Origin: a virus
Virus record (IMG/VR): IMGVR_UViG_3300021420_000014
Length of the DNA: 64,000 nt
Strand: one strand, 5' to 3'
Part shown: positions 11,659 to 61,597 of the stretch, piece after piece
Layout of the letters: each line of letters opens with the position of its first letter
How positions within the stretch are numbered: the stretch's first letter is position 1
The notes under the pieces: generated by a model
Told to the model about the DNA's origin: nothing
Databases searched by the model: none
The model's input: the letters and a program-made list of their open reading frames with translations, nothing else
Translations under genes and position numbers: made by a program

Positions 11659-13886
11659 AGCTCTTCGTTATAGCTGCGGCCATCTTGCTTTTAGCCATTC
11701 CGGCGCACGCGCAACTCTGGTCTGGAGTCATCTCCGCAGGCCGCGCTATAGATTGGTCATCTGCTGGCGTCGTCGGTGGAATTCCAGACGCAGCTTGGAC
11801 TCAATGCGGTTCAACCATCGCGGCCTACGGGACGGTGGGCACTCCTGGTGCTCCAACTACGATCAACAGCGCCATCGCAGCTTGTGGCGTAAACCAATAC
11901 GTGCTGCTAGGGATTGGCACCTTCGTTCTAAATGCCAAGATAGATTTTGCTTCAAAGTCGAATGTTGTCCTGCGCGGTGCCGGAGCAGACCAGACAATTA
12001 TTAAGTTTACAGCAGGACCGGGGACCGGATGTTTTGGGCTCGGCGGTGCTGTTTGTATTACAGGCCAAGATAATTTTGACATTCGGGATAACGTTCAAAA
12101 CTCTGCGAACTGGACGGCTGGATACGCCCAAGGTGCAACATCGATCACTTTGAGCAATACCACAAACTTGCAAATCGGTGCTCTTTTAGTGCTTTGGCAA
12201 GCAGATCAGGCAACCGATCCGGGCACGATTTGGAATTGTCAGAATACTGGAGCGTTAGGAGATTGTTCGGAGCAAGGAGGCCAAAACGGTCCTTCTGGCA
12301 ACAGTCAAACGCAAACTGTCACTGTAACTTCTATCCCCGGAGGAGGCGCAGGAGGCGCAGTTGGCATTTCTCCTGGTCTGTATTCGCCGATCTGGTCGGG
12401 AACTTTCTCGCCTGCGGCAGGCTGGAATACCCATCTGCCAGTTCAGAACGATGGCGTTGAAAACCTTACGCTTGATGGTTCTCTCACGACTGATAGCCCA
12501 GGTAGTGCGGGGTCATTCATCTTTTTTGGTTGGGCTAAAAACTGCTGGGTAACAGGCGTTCGCACGATCAACAATGGCTCACCGCCGGACAGAAATAATA
12601 TCTGGAGCTATTTGTCGTCGCATTTGACGATCCAGAATAACTATTCTTACGGGTCGAACGGTTCTAATCTGAGTTATGGGCACGAAGTATCTTTCATGTC
12701 TGACGACATTCTGGACGCAAACAATATATTTCAACACGTTGCCGGTGCTGAAATAATGAATGGCGGAGCGGGAAACGTCTTTGCGTACAACTTCTCGGTG
12801 GACAATTACTACACTGCGGGCGGCACGGCCCCCAATTTCGAGCAATCAGATTCCTACCCTTCTCACCAAGACGGTTCCTATTTCAATCTGTTTGAAGGCA
12901 ATGTTGGAGCAAAAATTGCTTCCGACGATATTCACGGCACGAGTTGGATGGTAACTGCATTTCGGAACCGCTGGACCGGGAGGGACGGTCCATTCAAGGT
13001 CGCGAGCACGATGGTCGCGGACATTGAAGCCTATTCACGCTATTACAACCTGATTGGTAATGTGATGGGTGAGTCCGGCTACCATACGACGTACAAAGAC
13101 ATCCCCTCTTCGAATGTCGATAATACTGGCTGCACGACTACAGGGAATGTCTCGATCTATGCACTAGGATGGGCGGGCGGACAGGCTTGCAACTACAGCA
13201 TTGTTTACAACGACACCAATGTCGCTCCTTTCTCTTATTTTTGGGGCAATTACGATGTCGTTACCGCAGCAGTCAGGTGGTGCGGGAATTCTGGCGATCC
13301 AGGCTGGTCGACGACGTGTAGCAGCACTTCGGAAGTCCCGACTGGTTTGGGCTCTTATGCTCAGACCGTTCCGTCCAGTACTGCGCTTCCTACATCGTTT
13401 TATTATTCGTCCAAGCCCTCGTGGTACAACGACGGAATCGGACACTCCGCACTTCACTATCCTGCGATTGGCCCCGATCTTTCTGGTGGCCCTGATCCGG
13501 GCGGCTTCGGCTATGCGATCCCCGCGCAGTTGTGTTTCAACAATACAAGCTACGATACAAATTATTCCGTTTCGGATTCCATAACCTCAATCAGTGAGGC
13601 GGGAACCACGGCGACCGCTACGCTTAGTTCAAGTGCGCCGGCGAGCTTCACGCAATATCAATCGTTTTGGATCACGGGCTCTTCGGTCGCTGGCTACAAC
13701 CGTCTCTGGCAGATAGCGACGGTAGCAGGAACCACGCTGACGTTCACTGCGACTTCCGGCCTAGGGTCGGCCACAGGAGGAAGCGCCGCGGTAAATGCAG
13801 TTCATTCTTTCAACGCCAACACCTGCTATAGCGGTGCTCTACCTGCACCTCCTACGCAAGTATCGGCAATCACGATTGGACCTTAA
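11655..13886 (+). CDS. secreted pectate-lyase-like right-handed beta-helix protein (depolymerase/adhesin-like)
   Basis: Signal peptide ending AHA-Q; TINSAIAAC, VVLRGAGADQT, GVENLTLD, NLFEGN beta-helix signatures. Confidence 0.75.
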   Translation: MKLFVIAAAILLLAIPAHAQLWSGVISAGRAIDWSSAGVVGGIPDAAWTQCGSTIAAYGTVGTPGAPTTINSAIAACGVNQYVLLGIGTFVLNAKIDFASKSNVVLRGAGADQTIIKFTAGPGTGCFGLGGAVCITGQDNFDIRDNVQNSANWTAGYAQGATSITLSNTTNLQIGALLVLWQADQATDPGTIWNCQNTGALGDCSEQGGQNGPSGNSQTQTVTVTSIPGGGAGGAVGISPGLYSPIWSGTFSPAAGWNTHLPVQNDGVENLTLDGSLTTDSPGSAGSFIFFGWAKNCWVTGVRTINNGSPPDRNNIWSYLSSHLTIQNNYSYGSNGSNLSYGHEVSFMSDDILDANNIFQHVAGAEIMNGGAGNVFAYNFSVDNYYTAGGTAPNFEQSDSYPSHQDGSYFNLFEGNVGAKIASDDIHGTSWMVTAFRNRWTGRDGPFKVASTMVADIEAYSRYYNLIGNVMGESGYHTTYKDIPSSNVDNTGCTTTGNVSIYALGWAGGQACNYSIVYNDTNVAPFSYFWGNYDVVTAAVRWCGNSGDPGWSTTCSSTSEVPTGLGSYAQTVPSSTALPTSFYYSSKPSWYNDGIGHSALHYPAIGPDLSGGPDPGGFGYAIPAQLCFNNTSYDTNYSVSDSITSISEAGTTATATLSSSAPASFTQYQSFWITGSSVAGYNRLWQIATVAGTTLTFTATSGLGSATGGSAAVNAVHSFNANTCYSGALPAPPTQVSAITIGP

Positions 13887-36255: not shown

Positions 36256-36870
36256 ATGGCACGAGTAAGACAAGTCAGATTGGCTGGACGCGAAACCGCA
36301 AAGAAACGCGCACCACGTAAACTGGATCCCAAGGCCGATTTTAATGAGCCTACGAAAAAGAATCCGGAGGAACCGGAACAATTAGTAGCGGAAGAACTAC
36401 AAACGGAACCGGCAGAAATGCCGAGCCGGATCGTCAACGGCTTCATGGCTGTTAACTTCGTGCGGCCGCATTTTGAAATTGAGAAGGATAATAGAAGCGT
36501 TGCACTGGAATTCTCTCTTGAACTCACCAACGATCACCGCAGTTTGTTGCCGGCGAAGATCCTCAACGAGTGGGAGCATATTGAAGAAGGTACTTGCAGG
36601 TTGAGTGAAGTGATTGGCGTTGGCACGCAACGTTTCGATCTGAGGCTAGCGCCAGATGATGAGGAATCGGACCTTGAGCAGGATTCACCAGTCCAAAAGA
36701 TTCGTTTGCAAGTGATCGAGGATAAGGGCAGTGGAGCTTCAAAAGATATTATTCGCCTATCATTCAGAATGCTGTGTGATTTGACGCCAGTCGTCGAAAA
36801 GTTCGCCTGCCGTAATTTCGGCGGAGTAATCTGGCTAAAAATGGACCAAATTCAAAGTGAATTGCTATAG
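36256..36870 (+). CDS. hypothetical protein
   Basis: AAGGAG SD; 204 aa. Confidence 0.6.
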   Translation: MARVRQVRLAGRETAKKRAPRKLDPKADFNEPTKKNPEEPEQLVAEELQTEPAEMPSRIVNGFMAVNFVRPHFEIEKDNRSVALEFSLELTNDHRSLLPAKILNEWEHIEEGTCRLSEVIGVGTQRFDLRLAPDDEESDLEQDSPVQKIRLQVIEDKGSGASKDIIRLSFRMLCDLTPVVEKFACRNFGGVIWLKMDQIQSELL

Positions 36871-36896
36871 CCAAAGAGTGTACGATTATGCAGATG

Positions 36897-36966
36897 TGGC
36901 GAGCCCGGGCTTGGCGCGGTTGTGCCGGGCAAGGCTAGGCGGGGTTCGGCACGGCATGGTTTGGGT
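36897..36966 (+). repeat. 14-unit NGGYN pentanucleotide array (candidate small RNA)
   Basis: tggcg agccc gggct tggcg cggtt gtgcc gggca aggct aggcg gggtt cggca cggca tggtt tgggt; intergenic. Confidence 0.8.
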
Positions 36967-36967
36967 G

Positions 36968-36998
36968 AGGCGAGAGGATTTCCTCTCGCCTTTTTTTT
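36968..36998 (+). terminator. intrinsic terminator
   Basis: GGCGAGAGG-ATTT-CCTCTCGCC followed by T8. Confidence 0.9.
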
Positions 36999-37184
36999 AA
37001 ATGTTATGAGTCTTGAGCAGATAGCCGAGAACTTGGCGCGAGCTCTAGGCCATGCGCCAGTCTGTAGAATTCTAGATGGTCCTAATTGCAACTGTGGCGC
37101 AGCGAGGCTCCAAGCAAAGGCACTGGCGGATTACGAAGACCACAAACGGAAACAACAGGCGAAAGAGGTCACAGCGGATTCCCA

Positions 37185-58799: not shown

Positions 58800-59753
58800 A
58801 TGAGCCAATCCAAAATAGATTTTCCTCAACCCTTGACGGAACGGTACAGGCCCAAGCGAGTTGCAGACTTTATCGGCCTCATCAAACCCAAAAAGATCAT
58901 GGAAGCATTCGTACATAGGCCATTCGATGCTGCTTTCTTATTTGTTGGGCAGTCGGGCGTAGGGAAAACCACGTTCGCCATGGCCGTCGCCAACCAAATT
59001 CAGGCGGAAACACATTTAATCCCGTCACGATCTTGCGATCTAGAAATGGTCGAGACTGTCACGAGGATGTGCTATTTCGCCGCATTTAATTTTACAACAG
59101 GCAAACCAGCGGCTTGGCACGCAGTAATCTGTGATGAAGCAGATCAAATCACTAATGCCGCTCAACAGGCCTTCCTGTCAAAGCTGGATGCAACAGCCAA
59201 ACCACCTAGCACGGTGTTCTTTTTTACTTGCAATAGCACGGCAACTTTAGAAGATCGGTTCCTCTCTCGCTGCCGCATATTGCCATTTGAGCGCGACACA
59301 CTTGAAGGTGAAATAGAGCATTATCTACGGCGAATTTACAAGAAGGAAGGTGGACGACATCCACTAGATTTTGAGGCCATAGCAAAGGCTTCATCTTACA
59401 ATGTGCGCGACGCACTAAATAAGATAGAAATGGAACTGATGATTGGTACTGATCGAGACGATCTGCCTTCGGAGGATATTAAGATCGTCGAAAATCATAC
59501 TCATTCATGCCCGAAATGCCACCAGGGATACAAGCATAACGACCCACTTTGTGAATTGCCTTTTAGGCATATTTGCGAGCCGTGCGGTGGAGCAAAGACG
59601 ATCGGAACTCTTAGGGCACAAAAGGCCTGGACGACAATTAGGAAGAACATAGCTGAAGAAATTGAGCGTGAGAAAGGGGCCAAGCCATGCCGTACCTTGC
59701 CCAACCGCTCCTTGCCGCGCCGCACCCGGGCACGCCTGACCCCAACAAGCTAA
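58800..59753 (+). CDS. clamp-loader-clade AAA+ ATPase (RFC/DnaX/RarA-like) with C-terminal zinc finger
   Basis: LTERYRPK, GQSGVGKT, ICDEAD, SRC motif, VRDAL. Confidence 0.85.
   Translation: MSQSKIDFPQPLTERYRPKRVADFIGLIKPKKIMEAFVHRPFDAAFLFVGQSGVGKTTFAMAVANQIQAETHLIPSRSCDLEMVETVTRMCYFAAFNFTTGKPAAWHAVICDEADQITNAAQQAFLSKLDATAKPPSTVFFFTCNSTATLEDRFLSRCRILPFERDTLEGEIEHYLRRIYKKEGGRHPLDFEAIAKASSYNVRDALNKIEMELMIGTDRDDLPSEDIKIVENHTHSCPKCHQGYKHNDPLCELPFRHICEPCGGAKTIGTLRAQKAWTTIRKNIAEEIEREKGAKPCRTLPNRSLPRRTRARLTPTS
59678..59742 (-). repeat. 13-unit NGGYN pentanucleotide array (candidate small RNA)
   Basis: - strand: gggtc aggcg tgccc gggtg cggcg cggca aggag cggtt gggca aggta cggca tggct tggcc. Confidence 0.75.
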
Positions 59754-59968
59754 GGATATCACATACCTTGGGAGGCATGATATAGTTATGGCAATGACTC
59801 TATCGATCACTGCATATAAAAAATGGGAAGTGGACACAGTCGTTAAGTTCAACGACAGCCCGCGGCATCTTGCGCTGATGGCCTTCGCTATGACCCTTTC
59901 CCCTTCGCAGAGGATCTGGTTCGCGATATGGCTCGCCGAACTGAATATCAAAATGATCAAGCGGGCAC

Positions 59969-61597
59969 ATGAGTAAAGCTGAAGTATTGGCAGCCGATTT
60001 ATTTTGCGGCGGTGGAGGCACGTCTACCGGACTTGCCCAGGCATGTCTTTTGCTGAATCGCAAACTGAAACTGTTGGCAATCAACCATTGGGACGTCGCC
60101 ATCGACACCCATTCGACCAATCATCCATTAGCCAAGCACCTGTGCCAATCCATAGATAACGTAGAACCACGCAAAGCAGTCCCTGGTGGGCGGCTCCATA
60201 TTTTGGTGGCCTCGCCAGAATGCACCCATCACAGTAACGCCCGTGGCGGCAAGCCAATGTCAGAACAAAGCCGTGCCTCGGCTTGGCACATTTTGCGTTG
60301 GGCTGAAGCACTCTATATTGAGAACATCATCATCGAGAACGTCCGCGAATTCCGTACATGGGGGCCGATTGGCGCAAATGGGCGTCCGATCAAGCGGCTC
60401 CGCGGTCATCTCTATATCCAATTCCTGAATAGCCTTAGGGCTCTAGGTTATAACGTCGAGGATCGCATCCTAAATGCGGCCGACTTCGGAGATCCGACGA
60501 CACGTGAACGTCTCTTCATTATTTGCCGGCGAGGCAAACCAGTTTATTGGCCGGAGCCATGTTATGGCCCTCCGAATAAGGTAGCTGGCGGCAGTTTGAT
60601 CGATAGCAAACTGCAACCCTGGCGGACGGCACGCGGAGTCATTGACTGGTCGATCCCAGGCCAAAGCATCTTCACGCGCAAGCGGCCACTGGCCACAAAG
60701 ACGATTGCTCGAATCGCAGCTGGCCTTAGACGATTTGGCGGTGCGAATGCCGAACCGTTCCTAGTCGTGCTCAGAAATCATCAGCATTCCAGGTCGATTG
60801 ATCAACCACTTCCCACAGTAACTGGGAGCGGAGCGCATTTCGGACTATGCCAGCCATTCGTGATTGGCCAGCAATCGGGAGCCACGCCGCGTAGCGTAGA
60901 CGCGCCACTGCCGACTATAGCCGCAAAAGGTGCTATTGCGATGGTCGATCCTTTCCTTGTGGCTGTGAATCACGACGGGGAAAAGCGACGCTCGAAGAGC
61001 GTGGATGAGCCATTGCCGACAGTCACGACCAAGCGCAGCATGGGATTGGTGGAGCCGTTCATCCTTCCGCAATCATCAGAAGGGACGCCGCGATCGGTAG
61101 ATCGGCCGCTTCAGACGTTAACAACGACGAGCCGCGGAGTCGCATTGGTCGAGCCATTTCTTCTAAATATCGATCATCAAGGTGCCGATTCACCTTCGGT
61201 TAGGCCACTCGATGCTCCGGTCCCAACGCAGACAAGCAAGGCCAGGACCTGTCTTGTCGAGCCGTTTATCGCTAAGTTTAACGGCACGGCCAAAGCCAAT
61301 AGCGTTGATGAACCGCTCGATACCGTCACCACCAAAGACCGGTTCGCCTTGGTCACAACCGAGGCTGGCCAGTTCTATGTCGATATTCGTTTCCGGATGT
61401 TGCAGCCACATGAGCTAGCTCGGGCTCAAGGATTTGGCGATTCTTATACGTTTAAGGGCACGCGGGAAGATGTCGTACGGCAGATTGGCAATGCTGTTCC
61501 AGTAGCAACCGCTGCCGCCCTCTGTTCCGCGGTGCTTCAGGATCGCGCCGAGACAAAAGAGAGAAGGAGAGTACTATGTCGAACAAGAATCGCTTGA
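59969..61597 (+). CDS. dcm: DNA (cytosine-5) methyltransferase with internal repeats
   Basis: DLFCGGGG, SPECTHHS, ENV, RERLF, QIGNAVP; six SxDxPLPT-like repeats. Confidence 0.92.
   Translation: MSKAEVLAADLFCGGGGTSTGLAQACLLLNRKLKLLAINHWDVAIDTHSTNHPLAKHLCQSIDNVEPRKAVPGGRLHILVASPECTHHSNARGGKPMSEQSRASAWHILRWAEALYIENIIIENVREFRTWGPIGANGRPIKRLRGHLYIQFLNSLRALGYNVEDRILNAADFGDPTTRERLFIICRRGKPVYWPEPCYGPPNKVAGGSLIDSKLQPWRTARGVIDWSIPGQSIFTRKRPLATKTIARIAAGLRRFGGANAEPFLVVLRNHQHSRSIDQPLPTVTGSGAHFGLCQPFVIGQQSGATPRSVDAPLPTIAAKGAIAMVDPFLVAVNHDGEKRRSKSVDEPLPTVTTKRSMGLVEPFILPQSSEGTPRSVDRPLQTLTTTSRGVALVEPFLLNIDHQGADSPSVRPLDAPVPTQTSKARTCLVEPFIAKFNGTAKANSVDEPLDTVTTKDRFALVTTEAGQFYVDIRFRMLQPHELARAQGFGDSYTFKGTREDVVRQIGNAVPVATAAALCSAVLQDRAETKERRRVLCRTRIA

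Follow-up and report, generated by a model that had tools for sequence, protein, structure and literature searches.

VIPR systems, introduced in a series of 2026 bioRxiv preprints, are CRISPR-like DNA silencers of phages. According to the accessible text of these preprints, the guide, or vrRNA, is about 100 nt long and consists of 9–16 YNNGG repeats, in which a constant GGY alternates with a hypervariable dinucleotide (NN), with a 3' tail behind them; it is the dinucleotides that determine which double-stranded DNA is recognised, one base being skipped per unit, usually the codon wobble, and targeting is PAM-free and can be directed at either strand (10.64898/2026.04.26.720920). A natural target is there one matched at 80% or more of the NN positions, and native guides have no match at that level in their own contig (10.64898/2026.04.26.720920). 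The effector, Vipr, is described as a small Cas7-like RAMP that forms helical filaments, each repeat being covered by one protomer; in the protein of Escherichia phage SUSP1, H17 and D177 read G1, R138 and W178 read G2, and Y3 is read by a pocket containing R179 (10.64898/2026.04.26.720927). In the accessible parts of the VIPR preprints, binding takes place by triplex or R-loop and is followed by transcriptional silencing. A further preprint, also accessible in part, defines solo vrRNAs as guides with no Vipr on the contig or with the nearest more than 20 kb away; they occur in satellites and phages, use the Vipr of another element, are directed at the genes of competitors, and match their own genome less well than those of relatives (10.64898/2026.10.15.759431).

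We analyzed a window of 64,000 nucleotides (the whole stretch of DNA under study, whose numbering is used here) from the virus record IMGVR_UViG_3300021420_000014, together with the genome of the carrier phage, which is complete at 164,879 bp in one contig with direct terminal repeats. An intergenic repeat tract in this window, A1, is very probably a solo vrRNA of a VIPR system, judging from its sequence, and would thus belong to a class already published in the 2026 preprints; a second solo tract, A2, lies in the same window (Table 1).

Table 1. Coordinates of the two solo tracts, their neighbors and the resident VIPR locus. Positions are those of the window, except where L001 is given (L001 = G000:C1:1-12000, G000 being the carrier genome).
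Feature	Position	Strand	Remarks
P0003 gene, 204 aa, conserved phage protein	36256..36870	+	
Carrier's own mismatched A1 site, 3' end of P0003 gene	36796..36836	+	18/28
Putative A1 promoter, TTGCTA-16-GATTAT	36862..36889	+	read from the sequence, inferred
A1 guide tract (probable solo vrRNA)	36898..36967	+	14 GGY-NN units
A1 3' tail, 11-bp hairpin and U8 intrinsic terminator	36967..36998	+	
Clamp-loader-like AAA+ gene	58800..59753	+	
Carrier's own mismatched proposed A2 site, codons (G)TLRAQKAWTTIR	59604..59641	+	~15/26, hand count
A2, second solo tract	59677..59746	-	13 units in register and a partial one, 12 starting with GG
A2 promoter-like region	59755..59806	-	TCGATA-18-TATCAT (scan tool); GATATC -10-like, homologous to that of A1
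Resident VIPR locus	L001:4240-6640	-	~26 kb beyond the window end
Resident vipr gene, 241 aa	L001:5910-6635	-	outside the window

The units at 36897-36966 read TGGCG AGCCC GGGCT TGGCG CGGTT GTGCC GGGCA AGGCT AGGCG GGGTT CGGCA CGGCA TGGTT TGGGT, with a strict 5-nt periodicity and GG at unit positions 2-3 in 12 of the 14, as an initial annotation of this DNA had described for a 14-unit NGGYN array. Shifted by one base into the GGYNN register, 12 of the 14 units start with GG and 11 carry the complete GGY, and the remaining positions form the NN string GA CG TT GC TG CG AA TA GG TC AC AT TT TG. The tract is intergenic, between the stop of the upstream 204-aa gene and the next ATG, at 37006. Its periodicity is far beyond chance; outside the two tracts the in-phase GG count over 14 units is at most 5 in the rest of the window, and in the whole genome only A1 and A2 scored at least 7/10 in an in-phase GG scan. 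A caller modelled on the published one called 13 units in each of the tracts (36898-36962 in A1), and Tandem Repeats Finder missed A1 because its units are degenerate. Scans with Rfam and ARAGORN (tRNA) returned nothing relevant at A1, the only Rfam match being CsrC, which scored 14.8 bits where the gathering threshold is 61 and covered the terminator only.

Directly 3' of the tract is a hairpin, GAGGCGAGAGG-ATTT-CCTCTCGCCTT, followed by T8, which folds at -20.7 kcal/mol (z = -4.75 versus shuffles). The terminator had been noted before as a 9-bp hairpin with T8; its placement stands, and the stem extends to 11 bp when an A-U and a G-U pair are added to the nine G-C/A-T core pairs. Upstream, the TACGAT that had been reported at 36881 is present (36881-36886), and a -10-like GAT[T/A][A/T][T/C] ends 8-10 nt ahead of the first unit, in the same place as in A2. 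The putative A1 promoter agrees with the sigma-70 consensus at 8 of 12 positions, which is under the threshold of the scan tool, and both promoter and transcript ends are predictions from sequence.

The variable dinucleotides of A1 proved to be the informative part of the tract. Decoded with a 1-nt skip, they match 25 of 28 positions (89%) at G001:90182-90222, where G001 is a related 123.7-kb phage (IMGVR_UViG_3300021420_000018, 81% complete) that was reached via homologs of P0003, the protein encoded immediately upstream of A1. This is the unique top match in 123.7 kb; the next best site scored 18, shuffled guides gave 18.3 ± 0.7, and 0 of 500 shuffles reached 25. The matched site lies close to the C-terminal end of the P0003 ortholog. 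It reads GAA CGG TTT GCT TGC CGC CAT TAT GGT TCG ACG ATC TGG TTG (E R F A C R H Y G S T I W L), and the match is in frame, with the skipped base at the wobble position. Among 20 decodings (5 dinucleotide positions by skips of 0-3), only the published one, positions 4-5 with a skip of 1, gives 25/28, and the others give 17-20/28. The guide thus spells E-R-F-A-C-R-(N/K)-Y-G-S-T-I..., a conserved C-terminal motif of the P0003 family.

The allele of the carrier itself, E K F A C R N F G G V I W L, which lies 60 nt upstream of the guide, has three amino-acid changes within this footprint and matches the guide at only 18 of 28 positions. A third allele of P0003, in L004, matches at 21/28, and a level of 80% or more is reached in one sequenced phage only. 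From the sequence of a further P0003 homolog, P0007 (ERFACRNYGSTVWL), an A1 match of about 25/28 is predicted. Within the carrier genome A1 scores at most 18/28, the null being 18.4 ± 0.7, and regulation of the phage's own genes was rejected, there being no own-genome match over the null.

P0003 belongs to a small homolog family, and its relatives were not easily found: blastn against phages and locus searches with single proteins returned none, and they surfaced only with alignments. The G001 and carrier proteins are 63% identical for P0003 and 72% identical for the clamp loader. No PDB sequence matched P0003, and its beta-rich fold matched uncharacterised phage proteins only, with no RAMP among them. 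A role for P0003 as a dedicated partner of the tract, or as a Vipr, was also considered and was rejected, since homologs occur in five relatives without a tract downstream.

These results bear on the function proposed in the initial annotation, a protein-binding small RNA ending at the terminator and acting as a decoy or scaffold for an oligomeric protein, by analogy with TRAP and CsrB. The first part remains the best reading of the tract, as an RNA of about 100 nt with Vipr gripping the GG(Y) of each unit; titration by a decoy does not, because the variable dinucleotides spell a 25/28 in-frame match to the gene of a rival. Like the trp leader bound by TRAP and the CsrB-type RNAs, A1 has short conserved motifs at regular spacing and is suited to an oligomeric protein. 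However, the motif in A1 is GGY, in place of the NAG triplets with 2-3-nt spacers bound by TRAP or the GGA in hairpin loops of Csr-Rsm RNAs, its variable positions carry a sequence code, and it matched no Rfam family. That the tract acts as DNA instead, as a G-quadruplex, an R-loop-prone element or an array of protein sites for replication or packaging, is very improbable: two-tetrad quadruplexes could form from the twelve GG runs and their 3-nt loops, and there are two inverted copies, but such a role leaves unexplained both a codon-phased 25/28 match under exactly one decoding and a terminator directly after the tract.

The second tract, A2, has the NN string CA GT CG GC GC AA GC TG AA AC AT TT CC and lies antisense within the last ~25 codons of the clamp-loader open reading frame. 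It lengthens that frame by this amount, the tail ..AKPCRTLPNRSLPRRTRARLTPTS being the antisense reading of the tract, and the orthologs in G001 and in G002, a more distant 179-kb relative, stop soon after ..IAAELK. A terminator scan and folding found no terminator at A2. The two tracts are inverted relative to each other and lie 22.7 kb apart. Their alignment shows 73% column identity, including about 35 nt upstream, and they have in common the blocks GGCG[A/T]-GCCCG-GG..-GGCGC and ACGGCATGG[T/C]TTGG, indicating that A1 and A2 are diverged duplicates of one cassette. The idea of a template and variable repeat of a diversity-generating retroelement (DGR) was dropped, given the opposite orientation of the copies and the 5-nt periodicity. 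Just downstream of the A2 cassette is a gene for a C-5 cytosine DNA methylase (59969-61597, + strand; PF00145, E = 2.8e-31).

In G001 the top match of A2 is 19/26 (73%), in frame on QHRAQKAWKTIRR, a C-terminal motif of the clamp-loader ortholog, and the same motif in G002 also scores 19/26. This is not significant by score alone, since a score of 19 is also attained by 45 of 500 shuffles and by other decodings; in the carrier genome the best A2 score is 17/26, equal to the shuffled-guide null. The support for A2 is positional: of all sites in 124 kb, the one that scores best belongs to the ortholog of the very gene that A2 abuts. A2 is probably aimed at the clamp-loader gene of relatives. The exact A2 core had 0 matches in IMG/VR, and a relaxed core had 25, none of them at 80% or more. 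Both guides end in ..AC AT TT, and in each the AC-AT units fall on a Thr-Ile pair, the two target genes being unrelated. This suggests that one guide arose from the other by a change of target, the new site resembling the old one (x-R-x-A ... T-I).

The carrier also has a VIPR locus of its own. The resident Vipr showed weak similarity to PDB 36pp_D, 'SUSP1 Vipr protein' (E = 0.019 over 50 residues), with the thumb arginine (IYRP) aligned to R138 of SUSP1 and the G-loop GVGSWRP to D177-W178-R179; R138, W178 and R179 are conserved, and a serine stands where SUSP1 has D177. In an AlphaFold model of the protein (pLDDT 64), the best 16 Foldseek matches were all Cas7-type RAMPs, among them type VII Cas7, Csm3 and Cmr4, with E values down to 5.6e-5. 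By sequence and by this model, the genome carries one Vipr effector, with the Cas7 fold. The vipr gene is flanked by long 5-nt-periodic arrays, with a 178-aa gene without a Pfam hit between them. The triplets in these arrays are AGC (49), TGC (25), GGC (13), CGC (9) and AGT (8), so that GGY makes up about 11% and the scaffold is N-G-Y with a relaxed position 1. An ATC[A/G]AAC motif recurs between the resident tracts and is missing from A1 and A2, and a 12-bp promoter box of the resident arrays is absent near both. The resident guides had no match over the null in G001 or in their own genome.

Compared with the published definitions, A1 and A2 have the expected repeat pattern, GGY with hypervariable NN over 9–16 units (14 in A1, 13 in A2), and neither has a self-target of 80% or more. 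Under the 1-nt-skip rule A1 has a natural target above 80% (89%), whereas A2 does not (73%). The resident vipr is about 53 kb from A1 and 30 kb from A2, well outside the 20 kb that separates a solo guide from its nearest Vipr. As for a structured 3' tail, A1 has the hairpin and U8 directly after the tract and A2 has none, and neither has the resident ATC[A/G]AAC motif.

The closest precedents are the solo vrRNAs of F5 satellites and VIPR-null SUSP1-like phages (10.64898/2026.10.15.759431). As far as the accessible text describes them, they resemble the present guides in lacking a vipr within 20 kb of their GGY-NN tract, and in having a guide that is in codon phase at a competitor's gene and matches self less well than relatives. 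They differ in that the present carrier keeps a vipr locus, with other triplets (AGC/TGC) and tails, that the tail here is a plain hairpin terminator and not the pseudoknot of SUSP1, and that the target is the ortholog of the adjoining gene, not vipr, another vrRNA, a satellite or a REP. The type II VIPR system of SUSP1 (10.64898/2026.04.26.720920, 10.64898/2026.04.26.720927; PDB 36pp), again from the parts of the sources that are accessible, is similar in its GGY-NN tract of 13-14 units within an RNA of about 100 nt, and in a 1-nt-skip code that gives a wobble-aligned natural target. Its Vipr shares with the resident protein the Cas7-like character, the thumb arginine and the W-R of the G-loop, although similarity in sequence is slight and D177 is replaced, as noted above. 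In contrast to SUSP1, the guide here lies outside the vipr locus and has no pseudoknot tail. Relative to the accessible text of the preprints, four features would be new: a VIPR-positive phage carries a solo guide on a scaffold different from that of its own arrays; the vrRNA ends in a plain terminator; the ortholog of the gene adjoining the guide supplies a named natural target; and the guide is linked to a resistant self-allele. We found no mention in that text of a guide placed beside a resistant self-allele.

We propose that the region 36890-36998 gives rise to a stand-alone vrRNA of about 100 nt, probably transcribed from the weak sigma-70-like promoter and ended by the hairpin-U8 terminator. 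By analogy with the SUSP1 Vipr preprints, Vipr would polymerise along this RNA with one protomer per pentamer, burying each GGY and presenting each NN. The 14 dinucleotides would then pair with DNA with every third base skipped, so that codon positions 1-2 are read and the wobble is ignored, and the complex would settle on the C-terminal motif of the P0003 family in rival phages. If the SUSP1 work is a guide, binding by Vipr and A1 may block transcription of the rival's gene and its operon in a co-infection. The carrier would be self-immune because its own allele, at 18/28, is below the published 80% threshold. A2, as a diverged duplicate cassette, would probably serve the same aim against the clamp-loader gene of relatives.

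The resident Vipr acting in trans is the simplest and most parsimonious candidate for the effector of A1. GGY should fit this protein because the resident arrays tolerate A, T, G or C at position 1, and a relaxed position 1 would fit the serine found in place of D177. Its loading of A1 and A2 is only putative, because both the triplets and the tail motif differ from those of the resident arrays. No second Vipr-like gene was found in the carrier genome or in the 81% of G001 that is available, and no GGY-type Vipr was detected in either. In G001 a short GGT-rich run lies just after a terminator (G001:C1:44102-44138 = L020:1501-1537, - strand; GGTGC GGTGT CGCAT GGTGC GGTTC GGTTA). It could be a short vrRNA, but a control with the reversed pattern gave as many matches.

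It is conceivable, if somewhat unlikely, that A1 and A2 instead depend on a Vipr of the GGY type from outside, brought in by a co-infecting rival phage or a prophage or belonging to a VIPR defence of the host, and either turn that machinery on the genes of the rival itself ('guns for hire') or titrate it as decoys. The scaffold triplet and 3' tail of the two tracts differ from those of all resident arrays, the promoter box of the resident arrays is missing at both, the resident protein has a serine in place of the residue that reads G1 in SUSP1, and solo vrRNAs that use another element's Vipr have a precedent in the accessible part of the published work. However, the targeted relative G001 (81% complete) yielded no GGY-type Vipr, and GGC and GGT units occur in the resident arrays, which makes a G at position 1 probably acceptable to the resident Vipr. 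A pure decoy, moreover, needs no 89% in-frame match to a rival's gene.

The position of the guides invites comparison with another kind of element. The free-standing homing endonucleases of T-even phages (the Seg and Mob families) are intergenic and lie beside the gene whose allele they attack in relatives, while the allele of the carrier is resistant. Here, by analogy only, a weapon likewise lies beside the resistant allele of the gene that it attacks: 35-60 nt upstream of each guide is the mismatched copy, in the carrier itself, of the site that the guide matches best in a relative. The A1 and A2 cassettes are absent from the corresponding junctions in G001, where the next gene comes directly after the stop codon and the gene order diverges. 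The initial annotation had looked to conservation of the periodicity in related phages, and at these syntenic sites there is none. Formally this speaks against the small-RNA reading; it is not a valid objection in the case of a fast-evolving guide cassette.

In a pilot survey we collected GGY-NN arrays from IMG/VR, where they are abundant among phages (at least 406 called arrays at at least 120 loci). For the 62 arrays with enough flanking DNA, guides matched the adjoining 300 nt better than DNA 1.0-1.3 kb away (means 0.583 near and 0.551 far; Wilcoxon p = 7e-4), with matches of 70% or more in 5 near flanks and 0 far ones. Several solitary arrays have in-frame matches of 73-78% in the adjoining gene, and in-frame near matches include L070:1553-1599 (25/32), L106:2240-2280 (21/28) and L117:1085-1128 (22/30), in none of which was an open reading frame with a Vipr-like G-loop found in the stretch examined. 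This suggests that a guide beside a near-cognate self-site may be a general arrangement, with the provisos that the pilot is small and that composition effects are possible. Among the matches listed for the 120 IMG/VR array loci, none is related to A1 or A2 in promoter or tail sequence. A plain hairpin-U terminator directly after the array is also present at L088:4062-4180 and L104 (- strand, 12699-12810), and a run of at least five T within 60 nt follows 24 of the 406 IMG/VR arrays listed.

We tentatively suggest that solo vrRNA cassettes are RNA-guided, homing-like selfish elements, and perhaps also orthogonal guides for the Vipr of a rival or a host. In such a scheme, which we put forward as a possibility with less than even prospects, the guide is linked to a resistant allele of its target and would disable the sensitive allele of relatives in a mixed infection. 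Recombinants that gain the resistant allele together with the guide might then spread, in a manner akin to the marker exclusion of T-even phages, although we hold this step to be equally doubtful. Consistent with the scheme are the location of both guides just downstream of their own mismatched sites, the lack of both cassettes at the same G001 junctions where synteny breaks, and the excess of near-flank matches in the pilot survey (p = 7e-4 for 62 arrays, with L070 at 25/32 in frame). Against it, type II VIPR is described in the accessible text as silencing without cutting, and the resident locus shows no evident nuclease; complementation in trans can make up for a silenced protein; A2 matches its proposed target weakly; and the survey has the limits given above. 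Unlike a homing endonuclease, the element here would be a guide RNA, dependent on a protein whose gene lies elsewhere, and cleavage and gene conversion enter only as an analogy.

Taken as a solo vrRNA, A1 provides an in-silico confirmation of the 1-nt-skip code of VIPR, far from the Enterobacteriaceae models; for this guide a natural target can be named, and the self-allele has visibly escaped. Since this phage builds its own arrays on another scaffold, the presence of solo guides prompts one to ask which Vipr they serve. The placement of a guide beside a resistant copy of its target suggests that such cassettes could be maintained and spread through linkage of weapon and immunity, as with homing endonucleases. 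If the homing-like reading is true, weapon and immunity would be inherited as one unit, and would spread by recombination in mixed infections.
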